Positions 24,865 to 47,929 of a stretch of 48,302 nucleotides of DNA are shown piece after piece. How positions within the stretch are numbered: the first letter of the stretch is position 1; every line of letters begins with the position of its first letter. Made by a program: the position numbers and the translations under genes. Origin of the DNA: Escherichia phage vB_EcoD_Opt-719. The DNA lies in sequence record OL539451.1, one strand, 5' to 3'. Below the pieces are notes generated by a model. The model worked only from the letters and a program-made list of their open reading frames with translations. It was not told where the DNA came from and did not search any database.

Positions 24865-25824
24865 ATGAGCTTCAAGGTTTACACTAACGATGAGTTAACC
24901 AACGAAGCCTACCATGAGGAGTCTGACCATGTGTCTGGCTCTGGTCTGGCTCACATCTTCTCAACTTGCCCAGCCGCATACAAATACGCTGAGCATGATG
25001 ATAGCAGTAAAGCGTTAAAGTTCGGTACATTGGCTCACACGATGGTTTTGGAGAGCTCTGTATTTGATGCGACATACTATCGTCAGCCAGCGCAGGAAGA
25101 GTTTGAAGACCTGATTACCAGTAAGGCTGCATTAGCAGCAAGACTGAAAGCGATGGGAATTGCTGGAACTTCTGGAAAGGATTACCCTGAATTAATGGAG
25201 ATACTGGCACTGACTGGTGAATCACTCAACGTATGGTGGGATATCCAGCGCTCTAGCGAGATTAAAGCAGAAGGCCGCGAGATTGTATCAGCTAAGGACT
25301 TTGACACCGTACAGGCGATGCGAGAGGTTTTGTGTGGAATTCCTGCTTACAATGCAATAGTTAACAGTGAAACCGCTCAGCGTGAACTATCAATTTTCGG
25401 TGAGATTAACGATTGTGGAGTGAAGGTAAGACTGGACCATGTTGATGTAGTTGGTGATGTTGTTTATATCCGAGATTACAAAACAACTAGCGACGCTTCT
25501 CCGTCAGGTTTCGGTCGCCTCGCCTTTAAGCATGGTTACTTGTTAAAGATGGCACTTCAACATGACTTATTTGTGCGAGCCTTTAATGAAAAGAGGCGAG
25601 TTGTTGTTCAGCTATTGGCGCAGGAAAAAAAGAGCCCGTACCTACCAATGTGCTACACGATAACAAAAGAACAGTTAAGGGTTGGTAGGTTGCAATACAT
25701 GAGTGCGCTTTCTACATACAAGCATTGTAAGAAGCTTGATATCTGGCCTGGGTATGGGTTCGGTGAAACAGAGATGGAATTGCAGATACCTGAATATGAG
25801 ATGAAGAAATATGAATTGGCATGA
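24865..25824 (+). CDS. putative PD-(D/E)XK recombination exonuclease
   Basis: 319 aa; DHVDVVGDVVYIRDYKTT (D...DxK-like) and downstream QHDLF motif; adjacent to Erf-like and SSB genes. Confidence 0.5.
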   Translation: MSFKVYTNDELTNEAYHEESDHVSGSGLAHIFSTCPAAYKYAEHDDSSKALKFGTLAHTMVLESSVFDATYYRQPAQEEFEDLITSKAALAARLKAMGIAGTSGKDYPELMEILALTGESLNVWWDIQRSSEIKAEGREIVSAKDFDTVQAMREVLCGIPAYNAIVNSETAQRELSIFGEINDCGVKVRLDHVDVVGDVVYIRDYKTTSDASPSGFGRLAFKHGYLLKMALQHDLFVRAFNEKRRVVVQLLAQEKKSPYLPMCYTITKEQLRVGRLQYMSALSTYKHCKKLDIWPGYGFGETEMELQIPEYEMKKYELA

Positions 25825-26266
25825 TATTTTTGAGTATATAGATGGATGCATAATATGGCGTGCTAGTGGTAATGTTGCTGGTTACAAACGAAAGGATGGT
25901 TATGTGATTGTGACAATAAATGGTAAGAAAATACTAGCGCATCGGATAATATACGAAATGAATAACGGAGATATAGAGCCAGGTATGCAAATTGACCATA
26001 TTGACCACAATCCATCAAACAACAGGATTGAAAACCTTAGGGTGGTTAACCACCAGGAGAACCAATCCAATAAGTCAAAGCAGTCAAATAACACTTCAGG
26101 GGTTACTGGCGTTTGGCTACATAAGAAATCTGGAAGGTTTGTAGCTGAAATAATGGTTGAAAAGAAGAAGATACATATAGGCTACTTTGATGACAAGCTG
26201 AATGCGGCAAAGGCTAGAAAGGATGCTGAAATTAAGTTTGGGTTTCATAAAAATCATGGAAAATAG
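25811..26266 (+). CDS. HNH homing endonuclease with AP2-like DNA-binding domain
   Basis: HNH motif DHIDHNPSNNRIENLRVVNHQEN; C-terminal GVTGVW...GRFVAEI...IHIGYF AP2-like segment; inserted between exonuclease and Erf-like genes. Confidence 0.8.
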   Translation: MNWHDIFEYIDGCIIWRASGNVAGYKRKDGYVIVTINGKKILAHRIIYEMNNGDIEPGMQIDHIDHNPSNNRIENLRVVNHQENQSNKSKQSNNTSGVTGVWLHKKSGRFVAEIMVEKKKIHIGYFDDKLNAAKARKDAEIKFGFHKNHGK

Positions 26267-26280
26267 CACGAATAGCTAAA
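26261..26280 (+). promoter_or_regulatory. promoter-cassette motif copy
   Basis: AAATAGCACGAATAGCTAAA; contains TAG stop of HNH gene; TATAGT and CATCGACAACGAGAGGA leader downstream. Confidence 0.5.
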
Positions 26281-26333
26281 ACAACATTAAATCGGTGAGG
26301 TATAGTTACCTCATCGACAACGAGAGGAAAAGT

Positions 26334-26984
26334 ATGAATACCAGCGACAAAAACACAAACGTTTTAAAGGCTCTATTTGAAGCTAAGAGCAAGTTTGCCA
26401 AGGCTGAAAAGTCAAAGCAGAACTCGCACCTCAAGAACAAATATGCAACATTAGATGACGTACTCGCAGCTGTAGAGCCTGGATTGGAGGATAGCGGTCT
26501 TGTGATGTTCCAGAGCATGATTGAGTCAGAAGTTGCAAATCAGATTAAGGTTGAGACTAAGATTTATCATGCTGAGTCTGCTGAATGGGTTTCTTTCCTG
26601 ACTATCGTTCCGTTGGCTAAAAATGACTGCCAGGGAACCGGCTCGTCATTAACGTACGCTCGACGCTACGCTATTACGGCAGCTCTCGGTCTTAGTCAGG
26701 CTGATGATGACGGCAATCTTGCAGTCAAGAGCGTCAAGGACTGGCGTAAAGATGTGGAAAAAGCAGAGTCTCGCGATGAACTTGTAGAGGTTTACAAGGC
26801 TTGTAAATCACAAGCTGATGCAGCAACGTGGGGTATTGTAGAGAAGGCCATCATCGAAAAGCAGGCGGAGATTAAGATGGCATCTGCGAGCGGGTTCAAT
26901 CCAGCTAAACCAAAAGAAGTAACTAAAGTTGTTGCAAATGCACCGAGTGAAGCTGTAGAATCACAATCAATCGAACGGTTCTAA
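26334..26984 (+). CDS. Erf-like single-strand annealing protein
   Basis: KALFEAKSKFAKAEKSKQNSHLKNKYATLDDVLAAVEP and TYARRYAITAALGL resemble ERF-family motifs; start ATG 26334 with GAGAGGA RBS (track GTG 26295). Confidence 0.55.
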   Translation: MNTSDKNTNVLKALFEAKSKFAKAEKSKQNSHLKNKYATLDDVLAAVEPGLEDSGLVMFQSMIESEVANQIKVETKIYHAESAEWVSFLTIVPLAKNDCQGTGSSLTYARRYAITAALGLSQADDDGNLAVKSVKDWRKDVEKAESRDELVEVYKACKSQADAATWGIVEKAIIEKQAEIKMASASGFNPAKPKEVTKVVANAPSEAVESQSIERF

Positions 26985-27031: not shown

Positions 27032-27457
27032 ATGCATACTTTAACAGGCGTAATTCGCAAAGCTCCTTACACCAAAGATGGTCAGAATGCTAAAGGCAAA
27101 TGGAAGATGTACGCTATCGAGATGAGCGAATCCTACAAGACTAAAGACGGAGAGCGTAAATATACTAACTATCGAATAACGATGTTTGCTAGTGAGGCGC
27201 AGATTGGCTGGTATGATGAGGCATTTCAGGAAGGAAAAGTTATCTCTGTGAGTGGTGATTCATTGGTGGTTAATGAGCGTGAGCATAATGGTAAGGTCTA
27301 CATCACTCTGGAGTTTCAGAATCCTCGATTAATGTTTAGCCAGCGAGGTGGGGAATCGGAACCACAGCAACAACAACAACGCCAGCAGCCTCAGCCTCAG
27401 CAGCAGCGACAGCAGCCACAGCAGCAAAGCCAGTTCGATGACGATATTCCGTTCTGA
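27032..27457 (+). CDS. ssb: single-stranded DNA-binding protein
   Basis: 141 aa; Gln/Pro-rich linker and C-terminal DDDIPF tip identical to the canonical bacterial SSB tail. Confidence 0.8.
   Translation: MHTLTGVIRKAPYTKDGQNAKGKWKMYAIEMSESYKTKDGERKYTNYRITMFASEAQIGWYDEAFQEGKVISVSGDSLVVNEREHNGKVYITLEFQNPRLMFSQRGGESEPQQQQQRQQPQPQQQRQQPQQQSQFDDDIPF
27364..27432 (+). repeat. CAG/CAA/CAGC low-complexity tract (poly-Gln linker of SSB)
   Basis: encodes QQQQQRQQPQPQQQRQQPQQQSQ; imperfect trinucleotide repeats. Confidence 0.6.
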
Positions 27458-27467
27458 TGTAAAATAT

Positions 27468-27491
27468 AAAGCCCCTTTCGGGGCTTTTTTT
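27468..27491. terminator. bidirectional rho-independent terminator
   Basis: hairpin GCCCC-TTTC-GGGGC flanked by A-run and T-run; between convergent ssb and tail fibre genes. Confidence 0.75.
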
Positions 27492-31747: not shown

Positions 31748-33691
31748 ATGACTATGCGATTGAAATCAATACAAAAACAAATTGAAGAACTAGGCAAAGA
31801 TAAGATTAAAGAGATTCAGGAAAAATTCACATCATCAAATGGCATGGTTCCTTACAGCTATCAGTGCGTGATGTATGACGAGATCGCCAAGCGCATTGGT
31901 AAATATAAATACCCATTCATCGCTATGGCTTCAGTATCCGCTGGTAAGACTCTGGTTTTCGCCATGGTCGCAAAGCGTTGCTCTGAACTTGGTTTGCCGA
32001 TGCTTTTACTTGCGAGACAGGCTGAGCTTGTTAGCCAGAGCGCCTCTGAAATTTCAGACTACGGCGTTCCTAACTCTGTCTATTGTTCAGGCCTTGGCAT
32101 TAAGTCCTCTTATTTCCCTGTAATTGTTGGCTCTGAAGGTACAGTTGTTGGTGGCCTTGATAAGGCGCTTGGTGACTTCTGCCCCGCAGTAGTCGCAATA
32201 GATGAATGTCACATGGTAGATGACCAGGATATCGCTGAAGCAATAGACAACAATGAGACATCTCAGCAAGCGAGAGATAAAGGACGAAGCCAGTACACAA
32301 TAATTATCCTTACATTGATGGAGAGATGCCGCGCTAAGTATGGTCGTGAATTGAGAATATTTGGCCTGACTGGTTCTCCTTTCCGCGGGACCGCGCCAAT
32401 TGTTGTAGAGAACCTTAAGGAACTTGGATTCTGGCGTGAAGCAGCGACTAACATTGATACCAACTATCTGGTTGAGTTTGGCTCTGTTGTTCCTACAAAT
32501 TTCGGGTCTACTGATGGTGTTGGCTATGACCTATCTGAGTTTGATACCTCAGCTGATGATGGTGTTCAGGACTTCACTAAATCCCAGCTAGAAGCAATGG
32601 AGAAGAAGATTCAGCAGTCGGGCACAATGACAGCTGAGATTATGAAGAAGGTGTGGTTGGCAGCTAAAGAACGAAACGGTGTTCTCGTGACGTGCGCTGG
32701 TGAGCGCCATTGCAAGGAGGCTGCAAGCTATCTTCCTGAAGGTGAAACTTACTGCATAATTACTGGAAAAACTGGTGAGAAGCAGCGTAAGGAACTACTG
32801 GATAAGTGCTTCACTGGAGAGATTAAATATTGCTTCCAGGTTCAGGCGCTTACTACTGGGGTTAACGTTCCAACATGGGATACTAGCGTAATTCTTCGCA
32901 AGATTGGCAGCCTAACTCTTCTAGTCCAACTTCTAGGTCGTGGAATGCGCAAACTGAAGAAGCTACATGAAGACAAGGGAATGGTTAAGAATGACCATTT
33001 AGTTTTAGATTTCGCTGGAACTATGGACTCGATGGCTTCACTGTACTTCAATCCCATTCTTGAGCAAGCTCAGTATCAGCTACGGAAGAGTAACGGCAAG
33101 GAGACTAAGCAGTGTCCAGTTTGCGGAACTGAGAACAGCTTCTTTGCTCGCCGCTGTATGCATGTTGACGAAAGCAATAATCGATGTGAATACTTCTGGG
33201 TTAGTCGCACATGCGAAGACCAGAAAGACCCTCGCACTGGTAAAGTTATAGTTAAAGGATGCGGGGTTCAGAATGACGTTGCAGCTAAGATTTGCAGGGG
33301 CTGTGATTGCACATTACTTGACCCGAACCTAAAGTTAAGCGGGAAACATTACAGAAAAAACGATTGGTTTGACGTTGTTGATTTTAAGGTTGGACTAACA
33401 AAGAACCAATCAGGAATCATCTATAACTATGTGCTTGATGATGGCATGGGCGGAACCTTCAAGGCTTATGAGGTTTTCTTCGTAGAGTCTGACCATAGAG
33501 TATGTAAAACTCTCTGGCTGAATAATGGAATTAAAGGTCACGTAGTTGATATGAATGCCAAGCGATATATGGCTGCATATCGAAATGCTCGCAAGATTAT
33601 GGAGTACGCGCAGTACATTCAGGCCCCGAAGCGAGTAACACACCGCAAGACCGCTAAAGGCGGAGATAACATGGCAAATAAGGAGTTCTGA
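31748..33691 (+). CDS. SF2 DNA helicase (DEAH-like) with C-terminal zinc ribbon
   Basis: Walker A SVSAGKTLV, DECH box, C-terminal CPVCGTEN...C...C...C cysteine cluster. Confidence 0.7.
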   Translation: MTMRLKSIQKQIEELGKDKIKEIQEKFTSSNGMVPYSYQCVMYDEIAKRIGKYKYPFIAMASVSAGKTLVFAMVAKRCSELGLPMLLLARQAELVSQSASEISDYGVPNSVYCSGLGIKSSYFPVIVGSEGTVVGGLDKALGDFCPAVVAIDECHMVDDQDIAEAIDNNETSQQARDKGRSQYTIIILTLMERCRAKYGRELRIFGLTGSPFRGTAPIVVENLKELGFWREAATNIDTNYLVEFGSVVPTNFGSTDGVGYDLSEFDTSADDGVQDFTKSQLEAMEKKIQQSGTMTAEIMKKVWLAAKERNGVLVTCAGERHCKEAASYLPEGETYCIITGKTGEKQRKELLDKCFTGEIKYCFQVQALTTGVNVPTWDTSVILRKIGSLTLLVQLLGRGMRKLKKLHEDKGMVKNDHLVLDFAGTMDSMASLYFNPILEQAQYQLRKSNGKETKQCPVCGTENSFFARRCMHVDESNNRCEYFWVSRTCEDQKDPRTGKVIVKGCGVQNDVAAKICRGCDCTLLDPNLKLSGKHYRKNDWFDVVDFKVGLTKNQSGIIYNYVLDDGMGGTFKAYEVFFVESDHRVCKTLWLNNGIKGHVVDMNAKRYMAAYRNARKIMEYAQYIQAPKRVTHRKTAKGGDNMANKEF

Positions 33692-34080
33692 TGATTAAGG
33701 TATTTTACGATAAGACAAGCACGGACAAGGCCAAAGAGTTTGTACACCAGGTTAACTGTATCGCATGGGTTCGCCATAACCACCCTGAGATATTTGCATG
33801 GCACGTGAAGAATGAAGGCTTAAAGTCAATCGGCACTGCAGTGAAGGATAAGCAGGAGGGCGTAATCAAGGGAGTGTCGGATATATTACTGATCGGGCCA
33901 AAAGGATTTGGAGCAATAGAACTTAAGCGAGCAATAAAATCAGATAGCAAAGTTTCGAAGGAGCAAAAGGAGTTTCTTGAAAAGGTATCAGAAACAGGCG
34001 GTTACGCAGCAATCTGCTACGGATTCGAAATGTTTAAACTGGCAATTGAGGATTATCTATCAAATAGCACGAATTGCTAA
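33691..34080 (+). CDS. putative VRR-NUC-like nuclease
   Basis: 129 aa; PD-(D/E)XK-like core GVSDILLIGPKGFGAIELKR; ATG overlaps helicase stop (ATGA). Confidence 0.45.
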   Translation: MIKVFYDKTSTDKAKEFVHQVNCIAWVRHNHPEIFAWHVKNEGLKSIGTAVKDKQEGVIKGVSDILLIGPKGFGAIELKRAIKSDSKVSKEQKEFLEKVSETGGYAAICYGFEMFKLAIEDYLSNSTNC

Positions 34081-34081
34081 A
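34063..34081 (+). promoter_or_regulatory. promoter-cassette motif copy
   Basis: AAATAGCACGAATTGCTAAA; supplies TAA stop (C-terminal NSTNC) of upstream gene; GGATGG, TGTATTAT and CATCGAAACGAAA downstream. Confidence 0.5.
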
Positions 34082-34146
34082 GACGAAAACCAAGGATGGT
34101 GTATTATCACTTCATCGAAACGAAACGCACAAATGAGGCAAACAAA

Positions 34147-37158: not shown

Positions 37159-37176
37159 ATAGCACGAATTGCTAAA
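37157..37176 (+). promoter_or_regulatory. promoter-cassette motif copy
   Basis: AAATAGCACGAATTGCTAAA; TATAGT and CATCGAAACAAACGAGAGGA leader downstream. Confidence 0.5.
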
Positions 37177-37234
37177 ACACAAATTAAAAGATTGGGTATA
37201 GTTACTCCATCGAAACAAACGAGAGGATACAAAT

Positions 37235-43328: not shown

Positions 43329-43870
43329 TGTTTGATTTCAAAGAGGATAAACTTACTTATGAGCAGGTGTTAGCAGCAGCAGCGGCAGACAATCTGCCTC
43401 CCTTGCGAGTATCAATAATTGCAAATGGTTACCGACAATCTGCAAATCTATGGCCTGAACTGGATAAGGTCAAAGATTTCGAACTAGACACTGGAGCTTT
43501 AAAGATTATAGAAATCCTCATTAATCAAGGAATGAGCAGTAAAGGTGTCGTTGGTCTCGGGTCACTATATAATACAGTAAGGAAAGTTAAACCATTCGAA
43601 GGTAAAAGTGAAGTAATTATGGATATCAGAGATGTCATCATCCCAAACCTTGATAAGCTTGGCTATGCATGCCTAATCGGAGATAAGATTTACATCAACC
43701 CTAAACTGCTTGATGGCAACCAGGACTGGACTTACAAGGTTAAGCTGCTGGAAGATGATTTCAACATCGACGATTGCGAGAAGATTGTTGACGAGATTAC
43801 TATCAAGGCAATTGATGAGCAAATCGAGAGGCTCAAGCGGAAGAAGAAGTACCTCCTGACCGGTAAATAG
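43328..43870 (+). CDS. ATPase-less mini-paralog of the 39438..41021 P-loop protein
   Basis: 180 aa; MFDFKEDKLTYEQVLAAAAADNLPPLRVSIIANGYRQSA and KGVVGLGSLY...CLIGDKIYINPKLL match the N- and C-termini of the 527-aa protein; ATG overlaps upstream TAA. Confidence 0.55.
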   Translation: MFDFKEDKLTYEQVLAAAAADNLPPLRVSIIANGYRQSANLWPELDKVKDFELDTGALKIIEILINQGMSSKGVVGLGSLYNTVRKVKPFEGKSEVIMDIRDVIIPNLDKLGYACLIGDKIYINPKLLDGNQDWTYKVKLLEDDFNIDDCEKIVDEITIKAIDEQIERLKRKKKYLLTGK

Positions 43871-43884
43871 CACGAATTGCTAAA
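43865..43884 (+). promoter_or_regulatory. promoter-cassette motif copy
   Basis: AAATAGCACGAATTGCTAAA; contains TAG stop; GGGATGCG, TTATAGT and CATCGAAACGAAA downstream. Confidence 0.5.
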
Positions 43885-43948
43885 CCAGTTCCGCAGGGAT
43901 GCGTTATAGTTATTTCATCGAAACGAAATGGTTAATAGAGGAAGGCAA

Positions 43949-44708: not shown

Positions 44709-45535
44709 CAATTCACTTCCATGGCTCCCCTATAACGGGGGGCAAGGGCGATGCACTTGCTCGGACCGCGTATACAAATGGCGGTGCTTTCGTGTCATTC
44801 GCCCACCCGCAGCAGATAGAATTGGCGTTTAAGGTAGCGAATGCAGTATGCATAGATAATGGTGCGTTCTCTAAGAAGAATAGCGGCAAAGCTACTGACT
44901 GGCATAAATTCTATAATGACTTTTTACCCAGATTTATCGACAGAGAAAAGTTACGATTCTTTGTTATACCTGATGATATCAGCGGGTGCGACAAAGAGAA
45001 CGACAGATTAATAAGCGAACTTCCATTACACCTAAAGCACAAAGGAGCTCCAGTCTGGCATATGCATGAGAGCTTAGACAGGCTAGTCCACCTTGCCAAC
45101 GAGTGGGAATACATGTGTATAGGCTCGTCAGGCGAGTACTACTCTATCCGTTCAGAGAAATGGAAGCGGCGCATGAATGATGCCTTTAACGCTCTAATTC
45201 AGAGGGGCTACTCAGCAAAAATTCACGGCCTCAGAATGCTGGATGGTCGAGTTCTTGGCAACTACCCACTGGATCAGGCTGACTCAACAAACCTGGCTAT
45301 TAATGCGCCTAAGTGGATATGCAAATATATAGATATGACCATTGAGGCGTGCCGAGCTCAGACTCACAGAGACGCATGGATTTCAACCTCAGATCCGAAG
45401 TTTGCACTTGAGCAATTAATCGCAGACGGCGGCACAAGGGAGCAGATGCTGGCACAGAGATGCGCGATACTCAGGAATTGCATAGAAGCAGTAAGGCCAC
45501 CATCAAGGGATTCATGGAATAGCACGAATTGCTAA
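44705..45535 (+). CDS. hypothetical enzyme, tentatively TGT/DpdA-like transglycosylase
   Basis: 276 aa; GTG start overlapping upstream TGA (GTGA); motif VCIDNGAFS loosely resembles TGT catalytic DSGGFQ; call rests mainly on gene context; unverified. Confidence 0.3.
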   Translation: MTIHFHGSPITGGKGDALARTAYTNGGAFVSFAHPQQIELAFKVANAVCIDNGAFSKKNSGKATDWHKFYNDFLPRFIDREKLRFFVIPDDISGCDKENDRLISELPLHLKHKGAPVWHMHESLDRLVHLANEWEYMCIGSSGEYYSIRSEKWKRRMNDAFNALIQRGYSAKIHGLRMLDGRVLGNYPLDQADSTNLAINAPKWICKYIDMTIEACRAQTHRDAWISTSDPKFALEQLIADGGTREQMLAQRCAILRNCIEAVRPPSRDSWNSTNC

Positions 45536-45536
45536 A
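45517..45536 (+). promoter_or_regulatory. promoter-cassette motif copy
   Basis: GAATAGCACGAATTGCTAAA; supplies TAA stop (C-terminal NSTNC) of upstream gene. Confidence 0.5.
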
Positions 45537-45592
45537 CAATAAATCGGGTAGTCAGCTATGATTACCCTATCAACAACGAAGAGGAAATGATT

Positions 45593-46297: not shown

Positions 46298-46540
46298 ATG
46301 AGCAAGTACAACCGAGAGATTATCGGCCTGGATGGAACGTTAACGACAGTCGATGTATATCGTGTTCTGGATGCATTCCAGGTAACAGACCCAGCAATTC
46401 AGCACGCAATCAAGAAAATGCTCTGTACTGGGTTGCGAGGCCACAAGGATTACCTCACCGACATTGATGACTCAATAGAATCACTTAGGAAAGCAAAGGA
46501 GCTTTACGGTCAGAAGAAGATAAATAGCACGAATTGCTAA
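46298..46540 (+). CDS. hypothetical protein (80 aa)
   Basis: track ORF; C-terminus NSTNC supplied by promoter-cassette motif. Confidence 0.45.
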   Translation: MSKYNREIIGLDGTLTTVDVYRVLDAFQVTDPAIQHAIKKMLCTGLRGHKDYLTDIDDSIESLRKAKELYGQKKINSTNC

Positions 46541-46541
46541 A
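46522..46541 (+). promoter_or_regulatory. promoter-cassette motif copy
   Basis: AAATAGCACGAATTGCTAAA; GGGATGCG and CTAAATCGAAACGAA downstream. Confidence 0.5.
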
Positions 46542-46597
46542 CATCAATCGCAGGGATGCGTTACTATTACTAAATCGAAACGAACTAGGAAGAAGAA

Positions 46598-47827: not shown

Positions 47828-47929
47828 GCTCACGTTGCTAATGTTGGCCTAAGGGTGGAGCTTATACCTCCATAAAGCAATCACCAGATAAGTGATGTAA
47901 CGCAGGTTCGATTCCTGCCGTGAGCACCA
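47828..47929 (+). tRNA. atypical tRNA-like element (102 nt incl. CCA)
   Basis: perfect 7-bp acceptor pairing GCTCACG/CGTGAGC, T-arm GCAGG-TTCGATT-CCTGC, discriminator A plus CCA; two candidate anticodon stem-loops (CUUAUAC, CAGAUAA); D-region ~26 nt too long. Confidence 0.35.

Follow-up and report, generated by a model that had tools for sequence, protein, structure and literature searches.

A putative free-standing HNH-AP2 homing endonuclease gene at the exonuclease–erf junction of Escherichia phage vB_EcoD_Opt-719

I-HmuI, encoded in an intron of Bacillus phage SPO1, nicks one strand, and the free-standing homing endonucleases of phage T4 (Mob and Seg) bring about marker exclusion in mixed infection. 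Proteins that combine an HNH or HNN nuclease with an AP2 domain form an established family of phage homing endonuclease genes (HEGs), including those of T1, Rtp and T5 (PMC2248197, PMC10448857, PMC5714182), and HNH genes have been noted as repositioned among T1-like genomes (PMC13164509). Here we analysed a gene of this kind in Escherichia phage vB_EcoD_Opt-719 (OL539451.1), using the whole stretch of 48,302 nucleotides (nt), an essentially complete genome that is hereafter called the window. The gene is an open reading frame (ORF) situated between the genes for a RecE-like exonuclease (exo) and an Erf-family single-strand annealing protein (erf), and it is likely to be a free-standing HEG of the phage HNH(H-N-N)-AP2 class, that is, a selfish mobile gene. 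The class as such, the mobility of HNH genes among T1-like genomes and the GenBank label "HNH endonuclease" are known already; what is slightly unusual here is that very different alleles have repeatedly colonised one base-precise site and that a multi-copy intergenic motif adjoins it.

The window is ~100% identical to Klebsiella phage vB_KpnD_Opt-79 and to Escherichia phages PhleaSolo and Sadiya (48.3 kb; Drexlerviridae, Rogunavirinae). In the GenBank records of Sadiya, PhleaSolo and Opt-79 the ORF is labelled "(putative) HNH endonuclease" and is the sole HNH gene annotated in the genome. The genome announcement for 22 T1-like phages, which assigns PhleaSolo and Sadiya to Rogunavirus, leaves the gene unmentioned (PMC9119101).

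Domain composition of the HNH protein

The gene and its two domains are placed as follows.

25811–26266, + strand: putative HNH(H-N-N)-AP2 free-standing homing-endonuclease gene; 456-nt ORF with an ATG start, 151 amino acids (aa)
25934–26065, + strand: HNH_3 nuclease domain (Pfam HNH_3), residues 42–85; catalytic D62-H63, N75 and N84
26096–26239, + strand: AP2-fold DNA-binding tail, residues ~96–143; predicted strands at 97–104, 109–116 and 119–126, predicted helix at 129–143

The assignment to the HNH nucleases is far beyond chance. The window protein matches Pfam HNH_3 at E=1.3e-19 (69.9 bits vs a cut-off of 24.8) and phrog_99 (HNH endonuclease) at E=1e-62, and HNH_3 is also matched by every one of 49 aligned relatives (49/49). 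The ORF is full length and contains neither frameshifts nor internal stops. An earlier reading of this DNA, made from the letters without database searches (hereafter, the sequence-only reading), had reported a "canonical HNH motif" in the ORF. Both the ORF and the motif (DHIDHNPSNNRIENLRVVNHQEN, residues 62–84 of the protein) were found as given, and the protein does carry an HNH nuclease, but "canonical" had to be dropped since the arrangement is H-N-N and H81 of the quoted motif is not conserved across the 49-member family alignment. In the same alignment D62, N75 and N84 are invariant and H63 is at least 90% conserved, and all four residues are intact in the window protein. Judged by these residues, the motif is an H-N-N variant of the I-HmuI type and not a canonical H-N-H.

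A profile built from the alignment of the 49 relatives matched I-HmuI (PDB 1u3e) at 1.4e-9 over positions 1–98, with the spacing of DH...N...N aligned. The AlphaFold model of the window protein (a prediction; mean predicted local distance difference test score, pLDDT, 89) places a beta-beta-alpha-metal core at E59–63, E76–80 and H81–86, and a Foldseek comparison of this model with the PDB returned I-HmuI 1u3e on top (E=2.3e-4, prob 1.0, root-mean-square deviation (rmsd) 3.0 Å over 88 columns). By its sequence, predicted fold and catalytic residues, the window protein would belong to the HNH_3/I-HmuI group.

The AP2-like tail named in the sequence-only reading was recovered at the level of the family: Pfam AP2 is matched by 35 of the 49 relatives at E<=0.01, and positions 99–151 of the family profile match solved AP2 domains (WRI1, 7e-4; TEM1, 0.024; PfAP2, a Plasmodium ApiAP2 domain, 0.073), with the window sequence taken singly staying below the Pfam cut-off. 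Foldseek listed the AP2 domains of TEM1, WRI1 and AtERF1 after I-HmuI, and the AtERF1 match (1gcc) had a target-normalised template-modelling (TM) score of 0.65 and an rmsd of 3.3 Å over 54 columns (prob 1.0). The AP2 identity of the tail is supported by this family-level homology and by the predicted fold of three strands plus a helix.

The exonuclease–erf junction and its occupants

The features that define the junction in the window are listed here.

24865–25824, + strand: gene for a RecE-like exonuclease (DUF3799 / PD-(D/E)XK, 'exonuclease VIII'), 319 aa; Pfam 7.2e-20, phrog_412 1.7e-98
25811–25824, + strand: 14-nt overlap (ATGAATTGGCATGA) of the HNH start with the exonuclease end, supplying the new exonuclease stop TGA
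25816–26258, + strand: insert of 443 bp relative to empty-site alleles, ambiguous by +/-3 nt
26259–26279, + strand: relic of the original exonuclease tail (GAAAATAGCACGAATAGCTAA, formerly ...E-N-S-T-N-S-stop), overlapping a copy of a 19-nt motif
26334–26984, + strand: gene for an Erf-family single-strand annealing protein; Pfam ERF 9.5e-29, start as in GenBank

We aligned the region from the exo 3' end to the erf 5' end in 12 Rogunavirinae and compared the exonuclease C-termini across the same 12 phages. Nine of the 12 junctions are gene-free, and in these the exonuclease (321–322 aa) ends in ...KKYE(D/N)STNS before its stop codon; in the window, AHS24 and Phagiculus the protein (319 aa) ends in ...KKYELA. 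The junction of the empty allele reads ...TACGAA followed directly by RAYAGCACGAATAGCTAA..., and relative to the nine empty-site phages the borders of the insert are base-precise, with the displaced exonuclease tail kept; GAA stands at both ends, which leaves the position ambiguous by 3 nt. The ATG of the HNH gene is formed from the exonuclease codons TAT-GAA (TAC-GAA in every empty-site genome) and its TAG falls within the displaced exonuclease tail, the 456-nt ORF being longer than the 443-bp insert. In effect, the insertion provides the exonuclease with a substitute three-residue tail and a stop codon and leaves the erf control region downstream intact. The nucleotide identity of the window to AHS24 is 75–95% in the flanks and falls to 42–63% exactly within the HNH gene.

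The sequence-only reading had placed the gene between the exonuclease and Erf-like genes with its start overlapping the exonuclease 3' end, in agreement with the 14-nt overlap and with the Pfam and phrog matches of the neighbours. The same overlap arrangement is present in AHS24, Phagiculus and IME542. It probably couples the translation of the exonuclease and HNH genes and, along with a ribosome-binding site that appears weak by eye, suggests low, translationally coupled expression of the latter. The first 14 nt of the HNH gene (ATGAAYTGGNNTGA) encode M-N-W-x-D/E, and in 11 of 15 enterobacterial relatives they provide the upstream gene with a stop in the +2 frame. Such a built-in stop was rejected as a family-wide property, given that 6 of 80 distant IMG/VR members have a stop there and 3 of 80 begin with M-x-W; it is at most a subclade trait.

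The guanine-plus-cytosine (GC) content of the insert is 37.1%, vs 44.8% for exo, 45.2% for erf and 44.7% for the genome. All Rogunavirinae HNH alleles measured have a GC content of 35–37%, and because it is common to all of them, low GC is a trait of the gene family that says nothing on the age of the insertion.

An IMG/VR search with the exonuclease protein gave only six phages, all of them already in our set, and the census of the junction was therefore based on a sensitive blastn search with an artificial HNH-deleted allele (876 nt) against 50,697 phage records, of which 139 matched. The deleted allele aligns as a single piece of ~871–883 bp in 51 of the best 60 of these 139 records, and unbroken alignments occur further down the ranking too (Rtp, DTL, ACG-M12, JulesPiccard and others). 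Because it aligns uninterrupted to most relatives, the empty site is the common state among relatives, in the Rogunavirinae and in other Drexlerviridae. Occupied sites were found in the window lineage (three records), in AHP24, AHS24 and Phagiculus, and in IME542, TR2 and AN_ECEAS of the Braunvirinae. The site has thus been taken by at least five divergent HNH-AP2 alleles in two subfamilies, one of them frameshifted, and by unrelated cargo. The same-site alleles are 41–46% identical to one another (56% for TR2 vs IME542) and resemble one another no more than they do HNH genes at other positions. The check that the sequence-only reading had proposed was whether related phages have the gene at this junction, with an identical position in all relatives as the outcome that would speak against it; the site is empty in most relatives and holds different HNH-AP2 alleles in a few, which supports a mobile insertion.

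In every occupied genome, regardless of subfamily, HNH allele or non-HNH cargo, the right border of the insert is immediately followed by (A)ATAGCAC-AAT-GCTAAA. This sequence encodes the end of the exonuclease (S-T-N-S-stop) in the Rogunavirinae and follows the exonuclease stop in the Braunvirinae.

Several individual occupants deserve description. In AN_ECEAS (locus L035, 1212–1766) the HNH-AP2 gene is split over two reading frames just before the catalytic IDH, and only a 69-aa fragment is annotated; the explanation is either decay into a pseudogene or an error in the sequencing. Phage vB_Ec-G8 (L037, 1211–1675) has at the junction a gene for a 154-aa methyltransferase-like protein with an NPPY motif, and its right border is that of the HNH alleles. 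In TR2 (L039, ~1240–1820) the HNH cassette lies between 9-bp direct repeats (AAATAGCAC), the left in a partial and the right in a full copy of the motif, which hints, unlike the window junction, at insertion within the motif. In Shigella phage Sd1 (L008, 2807–3040) an ORF of 78 aa is placed beyond the motif and the hairpin that follows it, just ahead of erf.

HNH-AP2 genes also occupy other positions around the recombination genes, namely between erf and ssb (the gene for the single-stranded DNA-binding protein, SSB) in C119 (L002, 3343–3837) and e4/1c (L006, 2986–3489), and upstream of exo in Sf12 (L005, 1273–1821). They are 33–42% identical to the window gene. Across the Rogunavirinae, HNH-AP2 genes are thus found at three positions of one three-gene module, which amounts to a small 'HEG island' around the recombination genes. 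The paper that describes AHP24, AHS24, AHP42 and AKS96 leaves the HNH presence/absence polymorphism unmentioned (PMC4070988), and no description of an HNH-AP2 member at the exo–erf junction was found in the searchable literature.

The remainder of the recombination operon in the window consists of two features.

27032–27457, + strand: gene for the SSB, the last of the recombination operon; phrog_44 E=1.1e-30 and GenBank annotation
27468–27487, no strand assigned: bidirectional terminator-like hairpin (computed) that ends the exo-erf-ssb operon

A promoter of its own was considered for the window HNH gene and rejected, the exonuclease 3' region yielding no promoter-like site. Because none was found there, the gene is presumably transcribed together with the exo-erf-ssb operon.

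Homing, competing explanations and a possible mechanism

Several genomic hallmarks of a HEG are observed for the window gene: presence or absence at one site with precise borders, sporadic homologues in unrelated contexts, and atypical GC. The exact allele forms a singleton cluster among 5.8 billion proteins and was recovered only from its own lineage and a few read-archive contigs, in the same context. The best non-self identity is 51% among phage records and 54% among the 5.8 billion proteins, where the protein concerned adjoins a terminase. Among the other homologues of ~50% identity, that of JulesPiccard lies between tail genes, that of DS8 between ParB and RusA and that of VLCpiS13f near a methyltransferase, and another is placed between an ssDNA-binding gene and polA; contexts scattered in this manner are typical of mobile free-standing HNH genes. 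With the closest protein at 54% identity no donor could be named for the window allele, and the insertion therefore cannot be dated. The sequence-only reading had spoken of a "recent insertion", of which the noun stands (443 bp, precise borders, empty site in most relatives) and the adjective cannot be demonstrated, as the allele has no relative above 54%.

Some observations weigh against the interpretation as a homing gene. The allele is known from a single near-clonal lineage only, comprising three genomes of ~100% identity and a few read-archive contigs, and ongoing spread was not observed. A co-conversion signature was looked for, but no tract specific to HNH carriers was seen, and HNH-carrying genomes resemble the window in its flanks no more than HNH-less ones do. 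The Pfam AP2 match of the single window sequence is below threshold, at 23.3 bits vs a gathering score of 33.3 (E=8.2e-5). Cleavage, target site and homing, for the window protein and its close relatives alike, are attributed by analogy, from family membership, and an active homing gene cannot be separated from a domesticated or stranded one by bioinformatics alone (PMC10448857).

The junction is also a sharp mosaic recombination boundary. Over ~25500–26550, the identity of Sf12 and BECP10 to the window is 61–65% in the exo 3' third and 89–90% in the erf 5' third, and the AKS96/Rogue1/C119 group shows the opposite, passing from 82% in the exo 3' third to 64% in the erf 5' third. All four combinations of exo type and erf type occur among the relatives, so that the junction is a general recombination breakpoint. 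This would favour ordinary modular recombination without endonuclease-driven homing, in which the conserved Drexlerviridae flanks let any cargo swap in, an HNH gene included, and the same can be said of the right border shared by the HNH alleles and the G8 cargo and of the intergenic motif and hairpin (see below), which are more conserved than the flanking genes. We nevertheless consider this explanation unlikely. It leaves the over-representation of HNH-AP2 cargo at this and the neighbouring sites unexplained, and it is compatible with homing, which also ends in homologous recombination, so that it concerns the route of arrival and not the identity of the gene.

The narrow distribution of the allele and the 54% identity of its nearest relative could also mean that the gene arrived in the past by homing or recombination and is now an immobile, harmless passenger that is eroding, as the AN_ECEAS copy appears to have done. 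That frameshifted HNH-AP2 copy would then represent decay at the same junction, and a model of gain, degeneration and loss has been proposed for HNN-AP2 genes (PMC2248197). The window ORF, however, is full length, with intact catalytic and structural residues, a confident predicted fold and no frameshift or internal stop, and a stranded or decaying gene is in our view improbable. Least likely is a domesticated nuclease that benefits the phage by supplying the exonuclease/Erf/SSB pathway with nicked or broken DNA, for instance to initiate recombination-dependent replication or to act against the DNA of competitors or of the host. In its favour, the gene lies within the exo-erf-ssb operon, with which it is apparently co-transcribed, no promoter-like site of its own was found, HNH-AP2 genes recur at three positions of the module, and a housekeeping HEG-like HNH protein has a precedent in the HK97 gp74-type nuclease that assists terminase (PMC10448857), but most relatives have the same module without the gene, G8 has an unrelated methyltransferase-like gene at the site, AN_ECEAS has a frameshifted HNH gene, and the same-site alleles, at 41–56% identity and no closer than to HNH genes elsewhere, do not resemble a conserved functional partner.

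If the window ORF is a homing endonuclease gene, as we favour, its cycle might run as follows. Translation of the HNH protein would proceed at a low level, coupled to the exonuclease stop that lies 14 nt beyond the HNH ATG. When an HNH-less relative infects the same cell, its intact junction (...AARTAC GAA RAY AGCACGAATAGCTAA...) would be bound by the AP2 tail and the N-terminal region, and the I-HmuI-like beta-beta-alpha-metal site, with His63 as general base and Asp62 and Asn84 as metal ligands, would nick or cut nearby. The carrier's own site would be protected because the insert splits it. Recombinational repair would then copy the HNH gene, together with neighbouring markers, from the carrier genome, plausibly by means of the exo/Erf/SSB proteins encoded around the gene, a location that is suggestive of repair machinery close at hand. 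The outcome would be biased inheritance of the HNH gene and its flanks, that is, marker exclusion.

A broader proposal, which we put forward tentatively and hold to be possible rather than likely, is that the exo–erf junction of the Drexlerviridae is a shared, long-lived homing site, which at least five divergent alleles (41–56% identity, two subfamilies) have come to occupy at one and the same nucleotide boundary. Alleles would then mainly replace one another, in a turnover of HEGs competing for one target, instead of being simply gained and lost, and the divergent AP2 and N-terminal modules would have kept, or converged on, one specificity. The site would then be a natural system for the study of competition between homing endonucleases and of the evolution of AP2 specificity.

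The value of the locus is modest and lies in one base-precise site that shows the empty state, divergent intact alleles, a frameshifted copy and unrelated cargo, inside the operon for the repair proteins on which such an element depends and at a demonstrable mosaic boundary. For experiments on homing, marker exclusion and allele turnover it is a convenient system, the coliphages concerned being easy to grow. It also calls for some caution in phage engineering and therapy cocktails, as T1-like mixed infections could transfer the HNH gene and flanking alleles of the recombination genes.

Neighbouring elements and comparison with known systems

Two elements adjoin the junction, one of which is dispersed over the window.

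26292–26317, + strand: conserved 11-bp hairpin, TCGGTGAGGTA-TAGT-TACCTCATCGA, ~16 nt upstream of the erf start and directly ahead of the ribosome-binding site
2252–2271, ~26263–26282, 34064–34083, 37159–37178, 43867–43886, 45519–45538 and 46524–46543, all + strand: seven copies of the 19-nt motif

The hairpin has a predicted RNA folding energy of -19.4 kcal/mol (z=-5.1), and 90% of cells are paired in 15 phages of two subfamilies. One A-U/G-C compensatory pair with G-U intermediates gives modest covariation support. The hairpin may act in RNA processing or stability, or it may belong to a promoter.

The 19-nt motif, AATAGCACGAAT(T/A)GCTAAA, is almost invariant and has the palindromic core TAGCA-N5-TGCTA. 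Seven copies are present in the window vs 0 expected by chance, each at or next to a gene's stop codon and 30–75 nt upstream of the next start. Each copy is followed by a -10-like TATAGT/TATAAT box, ~22 nt after a -35-like TTGCTA as counted for the copy at 2252–2271. The exact 18-mer occurs in >120 stretches of viral contigs of T1-like size, often several times per contig. As a landing pad or target for HNH genes the motif was rejected, with HNH genes at other sites having no adjoining copy; of 103 motif copies examined, only one stands directly against an HNH-AP2 gene and three have such a gene within 600 nt. The motif is a general intergenic element of T1-like phages and probably a regulatory one; that it is an activator-dependent promoter is our guess. 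Rfam has no family for the junction hairpin or the motif, and the motif sequence was not found in print in the searchable literature.

Two further observations were made elsewhere in the window. A second tRNA-like sequence is present at 47828–47929, just after tRNA-Arg(CCT), with an Rfam tRNA match of 42.7 bits over 99 nt; ARAGORN reports it as a tRNA of undetermined type with an abnormal anticodon loop, and GenBank annotates tRNA-Arg only. At 33691–34080, directly after the helicase gene, there is a separate 'putative endonuclease' gene, whose stop is overlapped by a copy of the 19-nt motif.

Among the systems introduced at the outset, I-HmuI (PDB 1U3E) is the only solved HNH relative found by sequence and the top structural match of the predicted model, and it has in common with the window protein the N-terminal beta-rich region and the H-N-N beta-beta-alpha-metal site. 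The family-profile match, however, covers only chain residues 1–103 of 174, and I-HmuI is intron-encoded with a C-terminal DNA-binding part that is not AP2, whereas the window gene is free-standing with an AP2 tail. The Mob and Seg genes of T4 are alike in lifestyle, in their insertion in intergenic regions or at gene ends and in their presence or absence among relatives (the Mob class is treated in PMC10448857), but Mob has a zinc finger and Seg a GIY-YIG nuclease, and there is no sequence relationship beyond the HNH core. With the HK97 gp74-type proteins the window protein shares its nature as a small phage HNH protein. Those genes keep a conserved position beside terminase and cos (PMC10448857), whereas the window gene, missing from most relatives, lies in a T1-like recombination operon at a distance of ~23 kb from the genes for terminase.

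The architecture is shared with the HNN/HNH-AP2 genes of Xp10, OP1 and Xop411 (group I) and with the related IPA-HNH proteins of ICP1, which also have an N-terminal H-N-N nuclease and a C-terminal AP2 domain. The Xp10-type and ICP1 genes are likewise free-standing, sporadic and low in GC, and tend to be found beside conserved DNA-metabolism genes and at exchange boundaries (PMC2248197, PMC10448857). The domains of the ICP1 proteins are too divergent for Pfam HNH_3 (PMC10448857), which the window protein matches strongly. The Xp10-type genes are said to lack conserved flanks (PMC2248197), whereas the junction in the window is base-precise and reused.

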